64,000 nucleotides of DNA from an uncultured Gammaproteobacteria bacterium (GTDB lineage: Bacteria > Patescibacteriota > Patescibacteriia > Buchananbacterales > UBA6539). Positions 6,085 to 64,000 of this stretch are shown here, piece by piece. The translations under genes were made by a program, and so were the position numbers. The notes beneath the pieces are model-generated. The model had not been told where the DNA came from and searched no databases. It worked only from the letters and a program-made list of their open reading frames with translations. The first letter of the stretch is position 1, and every line of letters starts with the position of its first letter. The stretch spans positions 9,540-73,539 of the forward strand of contig CAZINP010000001.1 in assembly GCA_964540635.1 (NCBI GenBank). Direction: 5' to 3'.

Positions 6085-7125
6085 ATGAAAAAAATATTTT
6101 TGGGTTTAATCTTAAGTTTTTGCTTTATTCTCTTCCCCTTTTACACAAAAGCTGCCTCTAAAGAATGGCAAGCAATAACCCCCGAAGGGTTTGAAGCGAT
6201 AAATTGGGTAAAGGCAAGGGGTATAAATAGTTTTTTTAAACCTCAAACCAATAATGGCTACCTTGATTATCTAACTATAATCTATTTGCCATACAACGAA
6301 ATTGGTCTGATTACCTCTTCAACGCCCAAAACCACCTGGACACCGGCTTCCTCGGTATTTGCGGATACCTCTGCCAACAATTGGGTATTTGAAAAAAAAC
6401 CGGCCGAATTGTCAAAAAAAGATTATCCGGATGTTAAATTTGTTTGGAACATGCCGTTTTTTAATATCACCGGCACTACCACCGACCTGAGCCTAGCCTT
6501 AAAATTTAATTTGAATAAAAATCCTTTTATAACCAGCGGTAGCCGTCCAGAGCTTGATATGGCTCAGAACCGACGCATGCTAATTATTGATAATAAAAAT
6601 CATTCGGCCTTGATTTCGGATTTTAGCGAAGAAACATTTATTAACAATGGCGATTTGGCGGTTGAAGGTTTTGCGCCAGATACAACATTTAAAGGAGAAA
6701 GTTTTACCATCTCTAGATTATTTGTTGGCGTAAGGCCGGGCAATAAAGAATTGGTTATTTATTGCAGCAAAGGCGCTTCAATTGAGGATGCACAAAATGC
6801 CTTATTGGCCGCCGGCGTTCCTTTGGAAAACCAACTCCAAGCCGATGGCGGCGCCAGCGCCACTTGCGCTTACAATTTGCCCGGTCAATTCTTTACCGAA
6901 CCGGGCCGATCTTTGCCGGCCCTAGTTGGCGCTACTCCTTTTCTATTTACCGGCTCAATCATTAATGATCAAGTCAACGTTAGAAACGGTCCGGGAATAA
7001 AAAATAAAGCCGTTGATAAACTGGCCAAGGGAACAAAGGTTACAGCCTACGAAGAAAAATCAGGCTGGGTCAGAATAGGAACCTCCCCGCTCTGGGTTTT
7101 AAAAACTTTAATTAAAATTGACTAA
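6085..7125 (+). CDS. Secreted protein with C-terminal bacterial SH3 (SH3b) domain
   Basis: A signal peptide (MKKIFLGLILSFCFILFPFYTKA) is present. The C-terminal segment DQVNVRNGPGIKNKAVDKLAKGTKVTAYEEKSGWVRIG is SH3_3-like. The N-terminal domain is unassigned. Confidence 0.55.
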   Translation: MKKIFLGLILSFCFILFPFYTKAASKEWQAITPEGFEAINWVKARGINSFFKPQTNNGYLDYLTIIYLPYNEIGLITSSTPKTTWTPASSVFADTSANNWVFEKKPAELSKKDYPDVKFVWNMPFFNITGTTTDLSLALKFNLNKNPFITSGSRPELDMAQNRRMLIIDNKNHSALISDFSEETFINNGDLAVEGFAPDTTFKGESFTISRLFVGVRPGNKELVIYCSKGASIEDAQNALLAAGVPLENQLQADGGASATCAYNLPGQFFTEPGRSLPALVGATPFLFTGSIINDQVNVRNGPGIKNKAVDKLAKGTKVTAYEEKSGWVRIGTSPLWVLKTLIKID

Positions 7126-7132
7126 AATAAAA

Positions 7133-7162
7133 AAAGCCCCCGACTCTCGGGGGCTTTTTTTA
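7133..7162. terminator. Rho-independent terminator (bidirectional)
   Basis: AAAAA-GCCCCCGActcTCGGGGGC-TTTTTTT lies between convergent genes. Confidence 0.75.
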
Positions 7163-7164
7163 TT

Positions 7165-8442
7165 TTATTTTCTTTTTTTAAGCGACGCCAACTCCTCTTT
7201 TAATTGCGAGATTCTTAACTCCCGATTTATCATATGATCGTTCATCTCAGTTAACTGTTTTACTTTCTTTTCAAGCTCCAATTCGTCCTGTTTCTTTTCG
7301 TTGATATCAATAATTGAGCCAACCATTCTAATTGGTTTTTTATTTTTATCATATTGCGTGATACCATTTGCCCTAAACCAACGATACTCTCCTGTTTTGC
7401 ATTTAAGGCGATATTCTGTTTCATAAGGCTTACCGGTCTCCAAGCAGTTGTCAACAATATCAAAAGTTTTCTTTAAATCTTGAGGATGCAAAGATTTTTT
7501 GAAATCATCAAGGGTCGTACCCATTTCACCTTCTTTATATCCCAAAAGCACATAAGATTTTGGCGACCATAAAATCTTATTTGTTTTCAAATTCCAATCC
7601 CAAATACCGGCGCCAACGCCGTTAATTGCCAGGCGATAAGTTTCTTTGGCGTCAAAAAAACTTTTTTCTAACGCCTTCTGCTTTTTTATCATCTCTTCCA
7701 GAGATACTATTTTCTTTTCTAAATCAGATCTAAAATTCAATATTTCCCAAAAATGCTTTGGTTTTTCACGGCTTTCTTCAAGATATCCTTCAATCTTTAA
7801 AAAATAAGTAACCAAGGGGGCGGAAACAAAAGATAAAAATAAACGAATCGCGATGCTGCTCTGAAGTATAGAAAAATATACGCTAGAACCAAAATATGAG
7901 CCCGTCACAAAAACTAAAGAGTCAAGAAGATAAACAGAAAATATAACTAAAAAAACTCTAATAATCAAAAACAAAGATTTAACTCGAGAAAGCAGCTCCC
8001 AGATTACAGCTAAAAACAAAATATCTAAGATTATGGCTGAAATTGACCAAAAATAAACCCGAGCGGTTTGAGCATTTAATTGCACCCAACCCGAAGTGTC
8101 AACTTGCAAGCCAAGCAAATACACAACCCCGATATAGAGTAAAGATGAGAATAAAACAACCCAAAGTGCCAAGCGTCCAGCCTTTGGGCCTTCAAAAATA
8201 TAGAGATACAAAATACCAAGCATTAAACTTGTAAAAAACGAAAATGAACCTACTAGGAAAAACCACTGATTAAATATTACGGCAAAGCCCATATCGCTAA
8301 GATGATGGGTCAAAACTGTCATAACCGCAATATGCGAATAAAGCGGGATAAGAGTAAACCTGTCTTTCAAACGATAAAGTATAACCACCAAAAGCCAAAG
8401 AATTAAAGTCTGAAAGCACAAAACTAAAAATGGGTTAAACAT
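7165..8442 (-). CDS. Polytopic membrane protein with C-terminal PAS domain and coiled coil, no output domain
   Basis: About 6-7 transmembrane helices are followed by a PAS fold (GIWDWNLKTNKILWSPKSY...YRLKCKTGEYRWFRANGITQYDKNKKPIRMVGSIIDINEKK). The C-terminus is a coiled coil. No kinase or GGDEF domain is present. Confidence 0.6.
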   Translation of the reverse strand: MFNPFLVLCFQTLILWLLVVILYRLKDRFTLIPLYSHIAVMTVLTHHLSDMGFAVIFNQWFFLVGSFSFFTSLMLGILYLYIFEGPKAGRLALWVVLFSSLLYIGVVYLLGLQVDTSGWVQLNAQTARVYFWSISAIILDILFLAVIWELLSRVKSLFLIIRVFLVIFSVYLLDSLVFVTGSYFGSSVYFSILQSSIAIRLFLSFVSAPLVTYFLKIEGYLEESREKPKHFWEILNFRSDLEKKIVSLEEMIKKQKALEKSFFDAKETYRLAINGVGAGIWDWNLKTNKILWSPKSYVLLGYKEGEMGTTLDDFKKSLHPQDLKKTFDIVDNCLETGKPYETEYRLKCKTGEYRWFRANGITQYDKNKKPIRMVGSIIDINEKKQDELELEKKVKQLTEMNDHMINRELRISQLKEELASLKKRK

Positions 8443-15086: not shown

Positions 15087-17540
15087 TTGTTAAAATATGT
15101 GTATATGCAAAACTTTGGATTAACTTCAGCCCAAGCGCTGGAAAAACAAAAAAAATACGGTTTTAATCAACTCCCGGAGAAAGGTGGCCGGCCAAGCTGG
15201 GCGATATTTTTTGCTCAGTTCAAAAGTCCCATAATCTATATCTTGTTGGTTGTTACTTTTCTATCAATGGTTTTCGGGGAAATAACCGATGCCGGGTTGA
15301 TTGCCATTTTGATTGTCATTAACGTGCTTATGGGTTTTTATCAGGAAAACAAAGCCGAAAAAACCATGGCCAGTTTGAAAAAAATTATTCGGCCGATTTC
15401 CACTGTTTTAAGAGACGGCCAGATCATTAAAATTGAATCAAAAGAACTTGTTCCCGGCGACGTGGTTATTTTAAGCCAAGGCGATAAAATTCCGGCTGAC
15501 GGAAAATTAATCTTAGGTAGCAGCATCTCTGTCAATGAATCAATGTTGACCGGCGAAAATGAAGCGGTCATTAAAACAGTTGAGGATCACAATGATCTTT
15601 TATTCATGGGCACGGCCATTGTTACCGGGCGCGGTCAAATGCTGGTGGAAAAAATTGGCCAAGACACTGAAATTGGAAAAATTGGCAAAAGTTTATCCGA
15701 AATCAAAGAAGATAAAACACCACTACAAAAAAAATTATCAAGTTTTTCTAAAACCTTAACCTTATTTATTATCTTCTTAAGTTTAATTATATTTATCATC
15801 GGACTTTTGGCCAAACAAGAGATTTGGGAGATGATAAGATTTTCGGTTGTCCTTGCAGTTTCAGCCATCCCGGAAGCTCTGCCAATTGGCGTAACCGTAA
15901 TTTTAACCTTGGGCATGTCAAGAATCTTGAAAAAGAAAGGTTTAGTCAGAAAATTAATTTCAATTGAAACGCTGGGTTCAACCTCGGTAATCTGCACGGA
16001 CAAAACCGGCACCCTAACCGAAGGCATAATGAAAGTAGAAAAATTTGAATTTGCCCACGAAGAAGAAGCAATAAAAACTTTGCTAATTGCCAATATTCCA
16101 AAAAGCGGTCTTGAAGTTGCCCTGTGGGAATTTGCAAAAAAAGAGGGTAAAAACAAATACGATAAAGAAATTGCCTCGGCCAAGCGCGTTTATGAAAACC
16201 CTTTTGATAGTGAAAAAAAATATTCCCTTAACGTAATTGAGGCTAACAAAAAACAAACTGGTTATATTATTGGGGCACCAGAGATTGTAATTAATTTTTG
16301 CAAAACAAATGAAGAAACAGAATCATCGGTTTTATCCAATCTTGAAAAATGGACCACGCAAGGACTGCGCGTTGTGGGCTTGGCCACAAAGAAGTCCGGT
16401 GATTTAGAAAATCCGAACGATTACCAATGGGCCGGTTTAATCGGTGTCGTTGATCCAATCAGAAAAGAGGTTAAAGAAGCAATTGATATGGCCGCTGAAG
16501 CCGGAATCAAAGTTAAAATTATTACCGGCGATTACCTTAAAACCGCCCAAAAAGTCGCTACTCTATTAGGCTTAAATGCCAAAGACGATTATTGCATGGA
16601 GGGTCGCGACCTTGAATCGATTTCTGAAGCCGAGTTGGCAAAAAGAATCGATAAAATTACGATTTTTGCCCGCGTCACTCCTCATCAAAAACTAAAAATT
16701 GTTAATGCCCTGCAAAGTCGAGGCGAAGTTGTAGCCATGACCGGAGATGGTATAAATGACGCTCCGGCTCTTAAGAAAGCAAATATCGGCGTAGCGGTTG
16801 GCAATGCCACCGACGTTGCCAAAGAAGCCAGTGATTTGGTTTTATTGGACAGTAATTTCAAAACCATTATGGCAGCCTGCGCCGAAGGACGTTTGATTTT
16901 TTCCAACATCAAAAAAGTCGTTGGCTATATGATTTCAAATTCATTTGCCAACATTATTCTAATTCTTGGCACCGTCATCTTCAATCTACCGTATCCGGTT
17001 ACCATAGTTCAAATTCTTTGGATTCAATTAATTTGCGACGGCCCGCCGGATTTGCTTTTAGCCTTTGAACCAAAAGAGGAGGGTTTAATGAAAGAAGATC
17101 CGAAAAAGTTTATTGGTGAAGAAATTTTGAATCAGTGGATGAAAATGATTATTGCCCTAATCAGCACCAGCGTCGGTATAATCAGTTTTATTCTTTTTGT
17201 CTATCTATACAAGACAACTAACGACCTAGAGATGGCCAGAACGGTTGTATTTTTAACTCTCGGCAGCGTTAGCATTATTTACGTAATCTCATTTAAGAAT
17301 TTAACTCATTCCATATTTACCAGCCGCAACCTTTTTAAGAATATTTACTTATATTTGGGTATAATTTACGGCTTTGCCCTTTTGGCGATAGCCGTGTATG
17401 TTCCCTGGGCAAGAAACTTGCTTCAACTTAAAATACCGGAACCAAAATTGCTTTTACTTATCGGCTTAATAGGCTTGTTTATTACCATGATGGTCGAGTT
17501 CGCCAAAGTCTTTAATCATATATCCAAAAAAAGATCATAA
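15087..17540 (+). CDS. P2-type cation (Ca2+)-transporting P-type ATPase
   Basis: ICTDKTGTLTEG (phosphorylation site), MTGDGINDAPALKKANIGVA and a SERCA-like PEALPIGVTVILTLG motif are present. The probable true start is M7 at 15105. Confidence 0.85.
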   Translation: MLKYVYMQNFGLTSAQALEKQKKYGFNQLPEKGGRPSWAIFFAQFKSPIIYILLVVTFLSMVFGEITDAGLIAILIVINVLMGFYQENKAEKTMASLKKIIRPISTVLRDGQIIKIESKELVPGDVVILSQGDKIPADGKLILGSSISVNESMLTGENEAVIKTVEDHNDLLFMGTAIVTGRGQMLVEKIGQDTEIGKIGKSLSEIKEDKTPLQKKLSSFSKTLTLFIIFLSLIIFIIGLLAKQEIWEMIRFSVVLAVSAIPEALPIGVTVILTLGMSRILKKKGLVRKLISIETLGSTSVICTDKTGTLTEGIMKVEKFEFAHEEEAIKTLLIANIPKSGLEVALWEFAKKEGKNKYDKEIASAKRVYENPFDSEKKYSLNVIEANKKQTGYIIGAPEIVINFCKTNEETESSVLSNLEKWTTQGLRVVGLATKKSGDLENPNDYQWAGLIGVVDPIRKEVKEAIDMAAEAGIKVKIITGDYLKTAQKVATLLGLNAKDDYCMEGRDLESISEAELAKRIDKITIFARVTPHQKLKIVNALQSRGEVVAMTGDGINDAPALKKANIGVAVGNATDVAKEASDLVLLDSNFKTIMAACAEGRLIFSNIKKVVGYMISNSFANIILILGTVIFNLPYPVTIVQILWIQLICDGPPDLLLAFEPKEEGLMKEDPKKFIGEEILNQWMKMIIALISTSVGIISFILFVYLYKTTNDLEMARTVVFLTLGSVSIIYVISFKNLTHSIFTSRNLFKNIYLYLGIIYGFALLAIAVYVPWARNLLQLKIPEPKLLLLIGLIGLFITMMVEFAKVFNHISKKRS

Positions 17541-17544
17541 AATA

Positions 17545-17577
17545 AAAAAAGCCCCCGAGCTCGGGGGCTTTTTTTAT
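17545..17577. terminator. Rho-independent terminator (bidirectional)
   Basis: AAAAAAA-GCCCCCGAGCTCGGGGGC-TTTTTTT. Confidence 0.8.
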
Positions 17578-17580
17578 TTT

Positions 17581-18746: not shown

Positions 18747-21225
<2,479 letters not shown>

Positions 21226-21235
21226 AAATAAAACT

Positions 21236-21796
21236 ATGCCACTTGCAGATATAAACAAAGCAATAATGGCCGAGGCCGAAGAACAAATTCGCGCCATAAA
21301 AGCCGAAGGTGAAAAAAAATTGGAAGCGCTCAAGGCTGAATGGACAGAAAAGATTGCCAAACGTAAAACCGAAATTATTGCCGGTGCCCAGAGAAAAGCC
21401 AACCAAAAAATTCAGCAAATGCAATTTAAACTGCAAGCTCAATTTCAAGCCGAAACCTTAAAAGCTAAAAACGAGATTATAAATAAAGCTTACGAGCAGG
21501 CCAAAAAAACCTTAGGTGAGCTTTCCGAAAAAGAATACGAGGATTTTATGGTTAAATTGATTAAAAAAATCAATGTAACAGAAGGTGAATTAATCTCGGT
21601 GCAAGGCAAAGAAAAAATCCTCAGAAAAGCTTTGCAAAAATCTGAAAAGAAATTTACTATTTCAGAAAAAACAACAAAGGATATCGGCGGCTTTATCTTC
21701 CAATCAAATAAATTGGAAATTGACAACACTTTCTCGCGACTAATCTCTGATTTGCGAGAACAAACCGTTCTTGAAGTAACAAAAATTTTATTTTAA
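21236..21796 (+). CDS. atpE: V/A-type ATPase subunit E
   Basis: 186 aa. An N-terminal long helix (AEEQIRAIKAEGEKKLEALKAEW) and a C-terminal globular domain are present, in the expected operon position. Confidence 0.8.
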   Translation: MPLADINKAIMAEAEEQIRAIKAEGEKKLEALKAEWTEKIAKRKTEIIAGAQRKANQKIQQMQFKLQAQFQAETLKAKNEIINKAYEQAKKTLGELSEKEYEDFMVKLIKKINVTEGELISVQGKEKILRKALQKSEKKFTISEKTTKDIGGFIFQSNKLEIDNTFSRLISDLREQTVLEVTKILF

Positions 21797-21811
21797 CATC
21801 TTTTAATACCT

Positions 21812-22849
21812 ATGAAAGGCACTAATTACATCTACGCTTCCGCCAAAGTCAGGGCGCTTGAGAAAAAAATATTAGACGAAACGGACATTGAGCGCATGGT
21901 TGACGCGCCGGATTTTTTTAGTGCCTTTAAGGTACTAAACGATACTGATTTTGGCGATAATCTATTAGACTTAGATCCCTTGGATTATCGCAAAGCAATT
22001 AGCGCTGATTTTGAACAAATGCATGATCTGCTTCAAAAAATAACGCCCGAAGAAAATTTGTTTGAATTAATGTTGCTTGAAAGAGATTTCATCAATATAA
22101 AACTTTTCTTTAAGGAAAAACATTTTAAGATTAATGTGGTTGATTACGTTCGTGAAAACACTATTTACGGAAAAGATCATTTAAAAGATTTTGTTTACGA
22201 AACCCACATTCACGAGCCGGCAATTCTTGAGGCTTATGTCATGGAACAGAAAGGCCAAGTTTTAGATCAAGAAATTAAAGATGTTATTTATAGAACCGCC
22301 AAAAAAATTACGGAAAAAACCAGGCCGGATGAAATTGACGCAATGCTTACCCAAGAATACTTTGATCTTAAATTTGAGTTAGCCAAAAATACGGGCAGTC
22401 GCTTTATTGTCAATTACATTAAAATGGAAATTGATGTCAGCAATCTTTTGGTTTGGCTTCGCGCCAAAAGATTAAAGTTAAGCAAAGAGCAGTTAACTCA
22501 AAAACTTATCAAAGGCGGTCATGCTGATGTTAAGAGAATGATTCAATATTATTCTGAAGACGCCAGAAGTTTGAAGTTTTTTGTTAATGCTCATTTTGAC
22601 TTAAGAATTGTTGAAGCATACGATAATTTTTGCGAAAACGACAACTTGTTCGTATTAGAAAAAGCCTTGCAAGACTATAAAATCCGTTATGCCCAAGAAG
22701 CAAAAAGATACAGCTACGGTCCGGAAGTTTTATTTGGATATTTTTTAGCCAAACAAAACGCCAATAACAATATCAGAATTATCTTAACCGGCAAGCTCAA
22801 TAATATGCCGGCCGAAGCGATTAAACAAACAATTAGAGAAGCCTACTAA
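21812..22849 (+). CDS. atpC: V/A-type ATPase subunit C
   Basis: 345-aa helical protein in the operon position between E and F. Confidence 0.75.
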   Translation: MKGTNYIYASAKVRALEKKILDETDIERMVDAPDFFSAFKVLNDTDFGDNLLDLDPLDYRKAISADFEQMHDLLQKITPEENLFELMLLERDFINIKLFFKEKHFKINVVDYVRENTIYGKDHLKDFVYETHIHEPAILEAYVMEQKGQVLDQEIKDVIYRTAKKITEKTRPDEIDAMLTQEYFDLKFELAKNTGSRFIVNYIKMEIDVSNLLVWLRAKRLKLSKEQLTQKLIKGGHADVKRMIQYYSEDARSLKFFVNAHFDLRIVEAYDNFCENDNLFVLEKALQDYKIRYAQEAKRYSYGPEVLFGYFLAKQNANNNIRIILTGKLNNMPAEAIKQTIREAY

Positions 22850-22850
22850 T

Positions 22851-23168
22851 ATGGACTATAAAATTATTATCATCGGCAACGAAGACGCCATCACCGGCTT
22901 TAAGGCTATCGGCCTTGATACTTTTGGCGTTAAATCACAAGAAGACTGTGAAAAAAAGATTTCTGAAATATATGGCTCATCAGACTACGGCGTAATTTTT
23001 ATCACTGAGGACTGGGCCGACAAAGTAAAAATATTTTTAAGTCAATTGCCGCCCAAAGCCTTGCCGGCCATTGTTGCTGTTCCCTCTCAAGCCGGATCAA
23101 CCGGGGCCGGACTGGCTAATCTGAAAAAAATTGTTGAGCAGGCGGTGGGCTCAGATATTCTTTCTTAA
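22851..23168 (+). CDS. atpF: V/A-type ATPase subunit F
   Basis: 105 aa. IIIIGNEDAITGFKAIGLD is typical of subunit F. Confidence 0.8.
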   Translation: MDYKIIIIGNEDAITGFKAIGLDTFGVKSQEDCEKKISEIYGSSDYGVIFITEDWADKVKIFLSQLPPKALPAIVAVPSQAGSTGAGLANLKKIVEQAVGSDILS

Positions 23169-23201
23169 TTTTAAATATTAATCATAAAGATATTAAAAAA
23201 T

Positions 23202-24938
23202 ATGACTGCACAGAACGCAAAAATCATTAAAGTTTCTGGCCCACTAGTCATCGCCTCGGGAATGAAAAATGCCAAGATGTACGAAGTGGTTAAAGTTTCA
23301 GAACAAAAATTGATCGGAGAAATTATCGAACTCAAAGGCGATACCGCTTCGATTCAGGTTTACGAAGAAACCTCCGGGCTAGGACCAGGAGAACCGGTTT
23401 ACCAAACAGGCCAACCGCTATCTGTTGAACTTGGACCGGGTTTATTAAAATCAATTTATGACGGCATTCAACGTCCGCTAAACTTGATCTGCGAAAAGGC
23501 CGGCGATTTTATTACCCGCGGCATAGAAGTACCTTCTATTGATCGCCAGAAAAAATGGCGCTTTGAACCAACGGTAAAAGTTGGCGATCAGGTTGAATCT
23601 GGAGACGTCATTGGCACGGTTAAAGAAACAGAATTGATTGTCCATAAGATTATGGTTCCGTTTGGAATTTCCGGTAAGGTAGAAAAAATAAATGCCGGTG
23701 ATTTTACCGTTGTTGAACCGGTTGCCAAAGTTAACGGACACGATGTAATTATGATGCAGATTTGGCCGATTCGCCAACCACGACCAATCACAGAAAAGCT
23801 CTTACCAACCGAACCGCTTTTAACCGGCCAGCGCGTCATTGATGCTTTTTTTCCGGTTGTAAAAGGCGGAACTGCTTGCGTTCCCGGACCTTTTGGTTCA
23901 GGTAAAACCGTTGTTCAACATCAGTTGGCCAAATGGGCTGATGCAGACGTTATTTTATTTATCGGTTGCGGTGAAAGAGGCAATGAAATGACTGACGTTC
24001 TTCAGGAGTTTCCCGAATTGATTGATCCAAAATCCGGCAAACCCCTAATGGAAAGAACCGTTTTGATTGCCAACACTTCTAACATGCCGGTCGCCGCGCG
24101 TGAAGCTTCAGTTTATACCGGTATTACCATTGCTGAATATTTCAGAGATATGGGCCTTAAAGTTGCCTTAATGGGCGATTCAACCTCACGCTGGGCCGAA
24201 GCCTTAAGAGAAATGTCCGGTCGCTTGGAAGAAATGCCCGGCGAAGAAGGTTACCCGGCTTATTTGGGTTCTCGTACCGCCAGTTTTTACGAACGCGCCG
24301 GCTACGTAAAATGCTTAGGCTCCCAAGGACGCACCGGCTCACTGACTGTTATTGGTGCTGTTTCCCCTCCAGGTGGCGACCTTTCTGAACCGGTTACTCA
24401 AAACACTTTACGCGTAGTTAAAGTTTTCTGGGGCTTAGACGCTCAATTGGCTTATCGCCGCCACTTCCCCGCCATTAATTGGCTGACAAGTTATTCACTC
24501 TATTCTGATGACATTTCTGACTTTATGAGAAAAAACGCCGGTTCAGATTGGCCGGAAATGAAAACAGAAGCCATGAGCTTACTGCAGCAAGAAGCCAAGC
24601 TTGAAGAAATTGTGAGATTGGTCGGCGTTGAATCGTTATCAGCCAAAGAACAGTTAATTTTGGACACTGCTAAATCTTTACGTGAAGACTTCTTACATCA
24701 AAACGCTTTTGATGATATTGACACCTTTACATCCGCCAAAAAAATGTATTGGATGTTAAAAGCCATTTTAACTTTCCACGCCGAATCAACTGAAGCCTTG
24801 GAAAAAGGCGAAAAGTTAAAAGACTTAATTAACTTGCCGATTAAAGAAAAAATTGGCAAGGCAAAAATGGTTGAAGAAAAAAATCTCAACCAGCTAGAAA
24901 AGTTGGTTTTGGAAATTAAATCAGAAATTAACAAATAA
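23202..24938 (+). CDS. atpA: V/A-type ATPase catalytic subunit A
   Basis: Walker A GPFGSGKT is present, with non-homologous region and catalytic blocks typical of A subunits. Confidence 0.95.
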
Positions 24939-24949
24939 ATAGAATTAAT

Positions 24950-26338
24950 ATGCTTAAACAGTACAAAACCATCAAGCAAATAGCCGGCCCGCTTTTGATC
25001 GTTGAAGGCGTCAGTGACGTCAAATACGAAGAAATGGTAGAAGTTGAACTCTCAGACGGTTCAAAACGCCGCGGCCGTGTCTTGGAAATATCTCAAGACA
25101 AAGCCGTTGTCCAGATGTTTGAAGAATCTCGCGGCTTGGAAGTAGCCGGCGCTAAAGTTACTTTCCTTGGCAAAACCATGGAAGTCGGCGTAAGTAAAGA
25201 CATGCTCGGCAGAATCTTTGACGGCGCCGGCAAACCAAAAGACGGTCTGCCCAATATTATCCCCGAAAAAAAATTAGATATCAACAGCGCCCCGATTAAT
25301 CCCTACGCCAGAAATTTCCCCAACGACTTCATTCAAACCGGTATTTCCACCATTGACGGACTTAACACCTTGGTGCGCGGTCAAAAATTACCTATCTTTT
25401 CCGCTTCCGGCCTGCCCCACTCTGAATTTGCCGCTCAAATCGCCAGACAAGCCAAAGTCGCCAAACCAGACGGCACAACCGAAGGAAACTTTGCGGTTGT
25501 ATTCGCTGCCATGGGCATCACCTTTGAAGAATCAGAATTTTTTATCAACCAGTTCAAAGAAACCGGCGCTATTTCAAGGGCCGTACTTTACGTTAACTTG
25601 GCCAATGATCCGGTGGTTGAGCGTATCACCCTGCCGCGCATTGCCTTAACAACTGCCGAATATCTGGCCTTTGAACTTGATATGCACGTTTTGGTGATTT
25701 TAACTGACTTAACCAATTACTGCGAAGCCTTACGCGAAATATCCGCAGCCAGAAAAGAAATTCCTGGCCGCCGCGGTTACCCGGGCTATCTATATACCGA
25801 CCTTTCCACCATTTATGAGCGCGCCGGCAGAATTAAGGGCCGAAAAGGTTCCATTACCCAAATCCCGGTTTTAACCATGCCTGAAGACGATAAGACTCAT
25901 CCGATCCCCGACTTAACCGGTTATATTACCGAAGGTCAAATTATGCTTTCACGCGAATTGCATCGCAAAGGTATTTATCCGCCGGTTGATGTTTTACCTT
26001 CACTTTCTCGTTTAAAAGATAAGGGTATTGGCGACGGCAAAACTCGCGAAGATCACTCCGGTGTTTTAAACCAAATCTTTGCTGCCTATGCCAGGGGCAA
26101 AGAAGCCAAAGAGTTAGCTGTTATCTTGGGTGAATCAGCACTTTCCGAAGAAGATAAAAAGTTCGCCCAATTTGCCGATGCCTTTGAAAATTGCTACGTT
26201 CGCCAAGGCCGCGACCAAGACAGAAGCATTAAAGAAACTTTGGATTTAAGTTGGGACTTACTTTCAATTTTACCGCGCTCGGAACTAAAACGCGTTAAAG
26301 AAAATCACATCGAAAAATATCTTCCCAAAAAAGATTAA
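24950..26338 (+). CDS. atpB: V/A-type ATPase subunit B
   Basis: 462 aa. The blocks are homologous to the non-catalytic B subunit (no P-loop lysine context, [16 protein letters not shown]). Confidence 0.9.
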
Positions 26339-30432: not shown

Positions 30433-30462
30433 TGCCCCGCAAAAGCGGGGTATTTTTATTTT
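30433..30462 (+). terminator. Rho-independent terminator
   Basis: The hairpin CCCCGCaaaaGCGGGG is followed by TATTTTTATTTT. Confidence 0.6.
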
Positions 30463-39544: not shown

Positions 39545-39621
39545 GCGCCTGTAGCTCAGTTGGTTAGAGCGCCACCCTTATAAGGTGGATGTCCCTGGTT
39601 CAAGTCCAGGCAGGCGCACCA
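39545..39621 (+). tRNA. tRNA-Ile, anticodon UAU (gene TAT)
   Basis: 77 nt cloverleaf with a 7-bp acceptor (GCGCCTG/CAGGCGC), anticodon stem CCACC/GGTGG, loop C-T-TAT-A-A and 3' CCA encoded. Confidence 0.8.
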
Positions 39622-39678
39622 AATAAATATTGACTTTTTGAAATAAAAAGTCTAAAATACAGAAGTTAATAATACTGG

Positions 39679-39755
39679 GGGCGTATAGCTCAGTTGGTTA
39701 GAGCGTTACGTTGACATCGTAAAGGTCCATGGTTCGAGTCCATGTACGCCCACCA
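39679..39755 (+). tRNA. tRNA-Val (GAC)
   Basis: 77 nt with acceptor GGGCGTA/TACGCCC, anticodon stem TTACG/CGTAA, loop TT-GAC-AT and CCA encoded. Confidence 0.85.
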
Positions 39756-48230: not shown

Positions 48231-48315
48231 GCGGACGTGGCGGAATTGGTATACGCGCATGCTTGAGGTGCATGTGCCGCAAGGCTTGGAGGTTCGAGTC
48301 CTCTCGTCCGCACCA
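48231..48315 (+). tRNA. tRNA-Leu (GAG)
   Basis: 85 nt with acceptor GCGGACG/CGTCCGC, anticodon loop TT-GAG-GT, a long variable arm and CCA encoded. Confidence 0.85.
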
Positions 48316-48335
48316 ATTAGAAATAAAATTAATTT

Positions 48336-48409
48336 GGGCAGCTAGCTCAGTTGGTTAGAGCGCCTCGTTTACACCGAGGAGGTCATAGGTTCGACTCCTA
48401 TGCTGCCCA
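48336..48409 (+). tRNA. tRNA-Val (UAC)
   Basis: Acceptor GGGCAGC/GCTGCCC and anticodon stem CCTCG/CGAGG with loop TT-TAC-AC. CCA is not encoded. Confidence 0.8.
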
Positions 48410-48424
48410 TTTAAAACCAAAAAT

Positions 48425-48679
48425 ATGTTTCAATTTTTTCTTGGCTTAATTATTGTCATTGTCGGCGCTGTAGTTACTATCAAATCAGACTGGTTTTACA
48501 GAAACTTTGGACCAATCCCCTCATTTGATAAATATTTGGGAACTGAAGGTGGCAGTCGTCTTGGCTATCAAGTAATCGGAATTATTGCCTGCATCATCGG
48601 TTTCATGGTTATGACAAATTTAATTGGCGTCTTCTTGATGGCAACGGTTGGTAGACTTTTTACCGGAAGATTAAACTAA
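48425..48679 (+). CDS. Small two-transmembrane membrane protein (hypothetical)
   Basis: 84 aa with two clear hydrophobic helices, lying between tRNA genes. No Shine-Dalgarno, which is common in this genome. Confidence 0.4.
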   Translation: MFQFFLGLIIVIVGAVVTIKSDWFYRNFGPIPSFDKYLGTEGGSRLGYQVIGIIACIIGFMVMTNLIGVFLMATVGRLFTGRLN

Positions 48680-48694
48680 ACATAAAATATTTTT

Positions 48695-48771
48695 GGGCCC
48701 GTAGTTCAGCTGGTTAGAATGCCTCGTTTGCAACGAGGAGGTCAGCGGTTCGAATCCGCTCGGGTCCACCA
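48695..48771 (+). tRNA. tRNA-Ala (UGC)
   Basis: The G3:U70 identity pair is present (GGGCCCG/CGGGTCC). Anticodon loop TT-TGC-AA. CCA is encoded and followed by a U-G hairpin plus T-run. Confidence 0.9.
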
Positions 48772-58129: not shown

Positions 58130-58260
58130 TTTTCAATTCAAATATTTAAATTGAAAATTCATCTTTTAAAAAAAATAAAAATTGAGTATAATACAAAAGG
58201 CACTAAATTTCCTACCAGATATTTTTTGCCTTGCCTCCCCCTGACCGGGGAGGTTTTATT

Positions 58261-61339: not shown

Positions 61340-61978
61340 TCATTTGTTTCCACAATAATAAGCGCTTTCCAAGCCAGAAACTTGACGATCTTCAAGCTTG
61401 GTGTCAATTTCAAAGCCGGCCTTTACCACCCGTTGAGCGATTTTGTAGTTACCGTTTACAACCGCCTCAAGAACTGCGGTAGCGATTTTACTGTTGCCAC
61501 AAATAACCGACTTGTCTTCAATCGCATCAAGCAAGTATAAAACGATCAAGTCCAATTTCGGGTGATCGGGAACAGAATAGTAGGGACATGAGCCATTGTC
61601 TTCTTCCCTGGGCTCAATTACCTCATGGTTCAAAGCCTGGATTAAAGCATAGATGATATTAGCCCCAGACTTGACCAAGATTTTTACCGCCTCCAAATCA
61701 AGGCTATAAATCGCGCCTTCAATCGGCGTTTTAGAATAACCAAAACTCACGTAATTTACATTGGCGCCAAGCGAAATCAAAATAGAAATCGCTTTGATTT
61801 TTTCCGGTTGCGGCGCTTGATAGCAAACCGAGCTTAAAGCCGAGTTTAGAAACAACTCATCGGCTCGAAGCGAACAACACTTCTTGGCAAACGAAAGCCA
61901 AAAAAGCGCTTTTTTCATGGAGTGCTTGGCAATCGCACTCCTAATCCTAACCTCGATCAGCCTCCTTAGGATTATCAT
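61340..61978 (-). CDS. Ankyrin-repeat-like protein
   Basis: Repeats of the G-TP...A......LV.(S/A)GA.(I/V) type are present (SKTPIEGAIYSLDLEAVKILVKSGANI, IATAVLEAVVNGNYKIAQRVVKAGFEID). The track ORF extends to 62158 across a terminator and the repeat array. The start is taken at the internal Met. Confidence 0.4.
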   Translation of the reverse strand: MIILRRLIEVRIRSAIAKHSMKKALFWLSFAKKCCSLRADELFLNSALSSVCYQAPQPEKIKAISILISLGANVNYVSFGYSKTPIEGAIYSLDLEAVKILVKSGANIIYALIQALNHEVIEPREEDNGSCPYYSVPDHPKLDLIVLYLLDAIEDKSVICGNSKIATAVLEAVVNGNYKIAQRVVKAGFEIDTKLEDRQVSGLESAYYCGNK

Positions 61979-62074
61979 TTTCTTAAGCCTTTTGGTTACG
62001 GCCCTCGTTTCAAAGAACACGCAAGCACGAACAAGCAAGATAAGGTTAACAAATAAGCACAATAAAATCAAGAA

Positions 62075-62097
62075 TGAAAAAACCGGCCTTAGCCGGT
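62075..62097 (-). terminator. Rho-independent terminator downstream of the rRNA operon (minus strand)
   Basis: CCGGCTAAGGCCGG followed by TTTTTT on the minus strand. Confidence 0.55.
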
Positions 62098-62126
62098 AAA
62101 CAAATATTCGTAGATTCAAGTTTATT

Positions 62127-62374
62127 TCTGAATTTGAGAATAAAAAAATTGGATGCAAAGTTCCCGCGATGACCTATCCCGCTAAAGCGGGATTTCGCCC
62201 CGCAGATGCGGGGCTCAACTTTCCCAAAATGTTTTTTATCTGAATTTGAGAATAAAAAAATTGGATGCAAAGTTCCCGCGATGACCTATCCCGCTAAAGC
62301 GGGATTTCGCCCCGCAGATGCGGGGCTCAACTTTCCCAAAATGTTTTTTATCTGAATTTGAGAATAAAAAAATT
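62127..62374. repeat. 112-bp direct tandem repeat (2.2 copies) carrying pseudo-copies of the 5S rRNA 3' end plus two GC hairpins
   Basis: The unit GGATGCAAAGTTCCCGCGATGACCTA-TCCCGCtaaaGCGGGA-tttcg-CCCCGCagatGCGGGG-ctcaactttcccaaaatgttttttatctgaatttgagaataaaaaaatt begins at 62151 and 62263. The first 26 nt are identical to the 5S 3' end. Confidence 0.85.
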
Positions 62375-62503
62375 GGATGCAAAGTTCCCGCGATGACCTA
62401 CTTTCCCCCGAAGGAGTATCATCGGCTCTGTGAGGCTTAACTTCTGTGTTCGGGATGGGAACAGGTGTGACCCTCACGATAGAATCACGGGAACACTGCA
62501 TCC
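62375..62503 (-). rRNA. rrf: 5S ribosomal RNA
   Basis: The minus-strand sequence GGATGCAGTG...CCCATCCCGAACACAGAAGTTAAGCC...GGGAACTTTGCATCC has a terminal helix I and a conserved loop C region. Confidence 0.85.
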
Positions 62504-62559
62504 AATTGATGTAGTGTAATTTTTAGGTAATTGATTTTTTACCCAATTCTTGTGGTTAA

Positions 62560-64000
<1,441 letters not shown>

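Follow-up and report, generated by a model that had tools for sequence, protein, structure and literature searches.

Processing of pre-5S rRNA is known from Bacillus, where RNase M5 acts on a double-stranded precursor, and from Escherichia coli, where RNase E acts on the 9S precursor. Operons with two complete 5S genes exist (e.g., E. coli rrnD), and tandem terminators are known to follow rRNA operons, as do T1 and T2 of E. coli rrnB. Bacterial intergenic minisatellites provide the VNTR loci used in MLVA typing, and genomic islands duplicate the ends of tRNA genes as att sites. Here, these systems are compared with an array of 112-bp tandem repeats found downstream of a 5S rRNA gene in the window, that is, the whole 64-kb stretch of DNA that was analysed.

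The array resembles a tandem duplication at the distal end of an rRNA operon, in that 3'-end material is duplicated in direct orientation inside the transcription unit. In contrast to operons with two 5S genes, only the last 16 nt of the 5S (26 nt with the stem extension) and the trailer are copied, and the units fail the Rfam 5S model. With minisatellites and VNTR loci it shares head-to-tail units of about 100 bp, near-perfect identity, a noninteger copy number and absence from a relative, but, unlike them, it has a unit that extends into the end of a structural RNA gene and includes the 3' strand of that gene's processing stem. As in the pre-5S stems of Bacillus and E. coli, helix I is extended by pairing of the flanks (24 positions here), with a compensatory change in a relative, and a single-stranded A/U-rich segment follows; those precursors, however, have one 3' strand, whereas three are present here. 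The array belongs to a known kind, that of tandem duplications or minisatellites situated where an rRNA operon ends. For a unit made of a partial 5S end and a 23S-like hairpin, we found no described counterpart in the literature, nor were partial 5S duplications downstream of bacterial 5S genes found there.

Layout of the array in the rRNA operon

Tandem Repeats Finder delimited one array at 62120-62400 (period 112, 2.5 copies, 98% matches, no indels, score 548), and no other strong tandem repeat was present within the 64-kb window. The copies lie head to tail with high identity, as in a tandem repeat or minisatellite. Together with the exact repeats, this bears out an earlier reading made from the sequence only, which had placed tandem 112-bp repeats downstream of the 5S on the minus strand. 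All the sequence elements listed in that sequence-only reading were found in their places, and its interval, 62127-62503, also includes the whole 5S gene. On the same strand lie the 3' part of a 23S rRNA gene cut by the window end (62552-64000; Rfam RF02541, 1328.7 bits, model positions 1394-2925) and the full-length 5S rRNA gene (62385-62492 by Rfam boundaries; RF00001, 88.2 bits). The order on the transcribed (minus) strand is the 5' part of the 5S, then x-y-x-y-x, and then a terminator.

Block x (50 nt) consists of TAGGTCATCGCGGGAACTTTGCATCC followed by AATTTTTTTATTCTCAAATTCAGA, which together supply the 3' strand of the pre-5S stem, then a U-run and the first part of the trailer. The native block (62351-62400) comprises 16 nt of the 5S, 10 nt of stem extension and the 24-nt trailer AATTTTTTTATTCTCAAATTCAGA; all 50 nt are repeated exactly and in direct orientation in pseudo-copy 1 (62239-62288) and in the terminal pseudo-copy 2 (62127-62176), so that the three x copies are identical. 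Beyond the latter, 62120-62126 still follow the repeat except at 62124 and 62126. Block y (62 nt) is composed of TAAAAAACATTTTGGGAAAGTTGA, hairpin 1 (GCCCCGCATCTGCGGGGC), GAA and hairpin 2 (ATCCCGCTTTAGCGGGAT), an A/T-rich trailer with two stable GC hairpins. Its two copies, also identical, are found at 62289-62350 (hairpin 1 at 62309-62326, hairpin 2 at 62288-62305) and at 62177-62238 (hairpin 1 at 62197-62214, hairpin 2 at 62176-62193). For the 42-nt double hairpin, the folding energy is -27.5 kcal/mol (z -5.0). As to a dispersed palindromic repeat of the REP or MITE kind, which has many copies in a genome, this segment has two exact occurrences in the window, and no further copy of it or of hairpin 2 was detected with up to 3 mismatches over the 64 kb. 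The 21-mer AGGTCATCGCGGGAACTTTGC occurs three times (62155, 62267 and 62379), against 0 expected, and the 18-mer GCCCCGCAGATGCGGGGC is found in both copies of hairpin 1 and at 63664-63681 inside the 23S gene. Except for this hairpin, no part of the unit was seen elsewhere in the window. The junction sequence specific to the array is GCGGGATAGGTCATCGC.

The native 5S 3' end (62375-62400) is followed by two exact pseudo-3' ends (62263-62288 and 62151-62176). Two full units and one partial unit had been counted from the sequence; the 2.5 copies include the native 5S end, which leaves two pseudo-ends, not three, and two hairpin pairs, each pair preceding a pseudo-3' end. Each unit had also been said to carry the last 26 nt of the 5S. 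The repeat is present, but only 16 of these nucleotides are within the Rfam 5S boundaries, and the other 10 (CTTTGCATCC) form the 3' strand of the helix I extension. Apart from the 26 nt, the unit has nothing in common with the 5S but the 8-mer GGGAAAGT, which is located in block y. A permissive cmscan (E ≤ 10) of 62000-62560 returned only the full 5S gene and matched the units to no Rfam family, and the idea that the units are 5S genes or pseudogenes (RF00001) was rejected. Open reading frames running through the array had no homologues among 5.8 billion proteins, and exact and homology look-ups of those through the 5S and the array gave no matches. Past the array, the terminator scan found a canonical intrinsic terminator at 62075-62097 on the minus strand, where the sequence-only reading had placed it: ACCGGCTAAGGCCGGT and then TTTTTT, with hairpin and T tract at 62082-62097 and a tail to 62075 (fold -11 kcal/mol, z -3.8). 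It is probably the end of the rRNA operon transcript.

Origin of the array and its occurrence in relatives

The closest relative recovered was L122 (metagenome contig CEPX01191821.1), with 86% identity in the 5S and 89% in the 3' end of the 23S. L122 has one 5S 3' end and no second copy with up to 3 mismatches; therefore, the array is a lineage-specific duplication. We consider it most probable (about 0.65) that the array is a real and recent 112-bp tandem duplication in the distal part of the rRNA operon, transcribed as trailer and devoid of a function of its own. It would have arisen by replication slippage or by unequal recombination between x copies, and could expand or contract in the same way. 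Situated between the 5S and the sole canonical terminator, it would be transcribed only as a 3' trailer, by polymerases passing the 5S stem and the U-run, and cleavage of the extended stem in the course of 5S maturation would remove this trailer. The pseudo-3' ends would then be by-products, at most weak competitors of the native strand. The array is probably neutral, one relative and one sister strain being available for comparison.

A slipped-strand expansion seeded by the rRNA hairpin had been among the earlier proposals. The expansion itself agrees with copies that lie head to tail and are identical except for two edge bases, and with the single copy in L122. The seeding does not hold, because the block common to all three copies is the 5S 3' end with its trailer, whereas the hairpin is interior to the unit. 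If a tandem duplication is the right explanation, the array is an ordinary structural polymorphism that could be used as a strain marker. Annotators should also be warned that, with such an array, short-read assemblies break where the rRNA operon ends and spurious open reading frames appear.

Common to L122 and the window are the extended stem, the U-run after it and about 20 nt at the start of the trailer. At a similar distance past its 5S, the L122 trailer has a GC hairpin without a U tract (GCCCCGGCGAAGGCCGGGGT; motif GCCCCGGCGAAGGCCGGGG(C/U)), followed by a canonical terminator. The unusual stability of the unit hairpins, together with the presence of a trailer GC hairpin in L122 too, hints that this hairpin may have a conserved role. 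Homology of block y to the L122 trailer was considered and downgraded to suggestive, the score of 16 (vs. 12 ± 2.1) being reached in 128 of 2000 shuffles, which is not significant. In the more distant L126 (23S 83% identical), there is neither an extended stem nor a U-run, and the 5S is directly followed by an ordinary separate terminator. The metagenome scan for array-like sequence returned only L122 and one chance match (L123), which was located within a coding region and was rejected. No viral or phage contig contained the unit.

Relatives L124, L126 and L127-L130 were recovered through spurious open reading frames inside the 23S. L124 is the closest 23S match (93.5% over 554 nt); it covers neither the hairpin helix nor the 5S, and L126 and L127-L130 are too distant for comparison of the array. 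The similarity of L124 stops abruptly at window position 63481, and its positions 555-1075 contain a 150-aa open reading frame on the opposite strand, which could represent a 23S insertion or intron, or a chimeric contig. In L127-L130, Hainich groundwater contigs from a distant relative, several insertions that code for LAGLIDADG homing endonucleases split the 23S genes.

The 23S-5S spacer of L122 (positions 385-421) contains a fragment of about 34 nt, TGGTGGTTTTAGCAGTGGGGTCACACCTGTTCCT, that is close to positions ~4-38 of its own 5S, 120 nt downstream. This partial 5' copy of the 5S lies upstream of the gene, is followed by a GC-rich hairpin and escapes detection by Rfam. It would seem, therefore, that partial duplication of the 5S is recurrent in the lineage.

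The pre-5S stem and the hairpin shared with 23S rRNA

The 5' flank and 5' end of the 5S (62484-62507) pair with 62371-62394 over 24 positions (23 bp and one U.U), giving a pre-5S stem about 13 pairs longer than canonical helix I. A U7 run comes directly after the stem strand in every x copy, and L122 carries the same run (AAUUUUUUUAU) after its stem. The stem is kept in L122; in the extension, one pair is changed on both sides and two pairs on one side, as seen in these two sequences. Thus, in the window and in L122, the 5S flanks extend helix I and the pairing is preserved. Since the stem and the U-run are kept in L122 and absent from the more distant L126, the extended stem appears, from the two sequences compared, to be a conserved feature of the lineage. 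A pre-5S stem of this unusual length, with a U-run directly after it, is present in at least two related uncultured lineages and bears on 5S maturation or termination there.

The 5' strand of the stem is single, whereas each x copy keeps a complete 3' strand. Complementarity to the 5' flank of the 5S (47 nt, 72%; core of 23 bp) is found in each of the three x copies, and in the minimum-energy fold of the whole transcript the 5' strand is paired with the last of them. As a thermodynamic possibility, the pseudo-3' strands could compete with the native one for the single 5' strand. On these grounds a functional array can be imagined, in which alternative 3' strands modulate the folding or maturation of 5S rRNA, titrate an RNase that cleaves the stem or yield 3'-extended 5S isoforms, while hairpin 1 mimics the 23S tip and recruits a shared factor. 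The decoy or processing-site array proposed in the sequence-only reading is structurally possible in the same sense; of its conservation or use there was no evidence, and a single copy suffices in L122. We regard a functional array as rather unlikely. The native strand is made first and would be expected to pair first, the copies are identical and hence display no covariation that would signal selection, and the array had no other occurrence in the metagenome, viral or protein collections.

The hairpin that the units share with the 23S gene bears on the same question. Unit hairpin 1 is identical in 18 of 18 nt, on the same strand, to the tip of a hairpin in 23S domain IV located 1.4 kb away (63664-63681), and the identity ends exactly at the hairpin edges, with unrelated flanks on either side. 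The 23S hairpin (Rfam model positions 1751-1778), which is probably helix 63, sits just 5' of the universal CGACUGUUUACCAAAAACACAG. Its tip is reduced here to a 4-nt loop on 7 bp; the base, GCCCC/GGGGC, corresponds to the bacterial consensus in the alignment to the LSU model. The helix is variable, L126 having GCUUUCCUUCGGGAGAAGGAGAGC at this place and L127 an expansion of about 130 nt; that the hairpin forms the tip of a variable helix in the 23S, as had been suggested, was thus confirmed by the alignment and by the differences in sequence and length. In L126, the 23S tip and the 5S trailer hairpin are unrelated, which argues against a functional array. L122 starts downstream of the domain IV helix, so that its own 23S tip lies outside any comparison with its trailer hairpin.

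A scan of the genome collection with the 18-mer gave more than 120 matches in unrelated GC-rich genomes (Pseudomonas, Aeromonas and others); as a route to relatives, it was abandoned, the 18-mer being a generic stable hairpin that led to none. Similar GCCCC(C)G stems are also found in the terminators of this genome, and the sequence class of the hairpin is therefore common. Nevertheless, chance identity of the stem top and loop within one 2-kb locus is unlikely (1e-3 to 1e-4 by a rough post hoc estimate, after allowing for the hairpin class). We also considered block y as a patchwork of rRNA snippets and rejected it, since matches beyond the 18-mer were at chance level (156 of 500 shuffles).

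We favour the view that the 18-nt identity is a separate and secondary event, namely a brief switch of template from one to the other of two similar hairpins (GCCCCG...CGGGGC) that lie 1.4 kb from each other; coincidence is a possible alternative source, as is a functional mimic of the 23S tip. The identity patch confined to the hairpin, the unrelated flanks and the distance between the loci resemble short template-switch mutations between quasi-repeats or hairpins. The case differs from these in that we only infer the switch, and the L122 trailer hairpin shares with hairpin 1 no more than the CCCCG/CGGGG base. That the array is a selected device, with three interchangeable 3' strands, each after a copy of the 23S tip, coupling 5S maturation to a factor that also recognizes the 23S hairpin, is in our estimate highly improbable. 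Were it true, the shared factor might be an assembly or processing protein, and the cell could tune its 5S output or make alternative 3'-extended 5S precursors. Only if the shared hairpin co-varied with the 23S helix in relatives would the finding bear on rRNA processing.

Assembly, termination and integration as alternative sources

The preferred reading, a real tandem duplication, has to be set against an assembly artefact, in which the assembler would have expanded a short repeat in a genome with a single 5S 3' end. In favour of an artefact, the perfectly identical units do not reach the length of typical read pairs, and the full array was found in no second assembly. Tandem repeats are, however, usually collapsed by assemblers and rarely expanded. 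The neighbouring gene is present on one other public contig, from the Logan short-read assembly of SRR8925758, which is 99.1% identical to the window over 11.4 kb. At 0.9% divergence, this contig therefore represents another strain and an independent read set, and its end falls at window base 62156, within the terminal x copy. In Logan contigs, built with k=31, every 31-mer is unique (PMC12424806). When the window is turned into a k=31 graph, the unitig from the flanking gene stops exactly at 62156 if the array is kept, since two different 31-mers precede the one that comes next; if the array is reduced to one copy, the unitig continues into the 5S and 23S. Because the independent contig breaks at the very base predicted by the graph, where a collapsed array would give read-through, the sister strain, too, probably carries at least one x copy beyond the native one, with an identical left boundary. 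The break gives a lower bound on the number of x copies, and a second rRNA operon with homology ending at 62156 would give the same break. Judged on this comparison, an artefact of assembly appears unlikely. Between the window and the Logan strain, the rRNA terminator and the array edge are identical, and the differences cluster at 61700-62010, in the 5' part and upstream of the ankyrin-like gene that adjoins the rRNA operon.

It had also been proposed that the array is a multi-terminator, in which the repeated hairpins act as successive terminators that guard the downstream gene from read-through of the rRNA operon. Two very stable hairpins per unit, and the U7 run directly past the stem strand in every x copy, would suit this role. 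Yet a T tract is missing after both unit hairpins, whichever strand is read, and the U-runs of the pseudo-copies have no local hairpin before them. A GC hairpin with a U tract directly after it, as in an intrinsic terminator, was found on the transcribed strand of the array region only at 62082-62097. All the evident terminators of this genome (7135, 17550, 30434, 58234 and 62082) have a T tract, the first four being GC hairpins flanked by A and T tracts. A multi-terminator is accordingly very unlikely, and the proposal failed on the T tracts.

Among these terminators, those at 7124-7166 and 17539-17580 are near-identical and bidirectional (AAAATAAAAAA-AGCCCCCGA...TCGGGGGCT-TTTTTTATTTT). The two agree in the 11 nt that flank them on either side and differ in the loop alone. 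Comparable hairpins, likewise set between A and T tracts, are located at 30434-30451 and 58234-58253, and together these elements may form a small family of palindromic terminator repeats.

Least probable of all is an att-site scar, left when a site-specific integrative element inserted at the 5S 3' end and duplicated it: partial copies of the 3' end of a stable-RNA gene do lie in direct orientation immediately downstream of the gene, as in att duplications of tRNA or tmRNA 3' ends, but a mere 62 nt separates the repeats, their regular head-to-tail period better fits a tandem duplication, no phage or viral contig contains the unit, Pfam gives no match to the neighbouring gene, and no integrase family or element cargo was seen between the repeats or in the 11 kb downstream.

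As to the gene content and composition of the window, a V-type ATPase, the ankyrin-like gene next to the rRNA operon and about 40% GC would fit a host-associated lineage from the environment, for instance Chlamydiota, but no lineage-specific family was found. A V-type (archaeal-type) ATP synthase cluster with subunits I, A and B (18747-26338) is found in this genome with a bacterial 23S, and a PMR1-like P-type ATPase is encoded at 15087-17540. Two tRNA clusters are located on the plus strand, one with two tRNAs (39545-39752) and the other with three (48231-48768).
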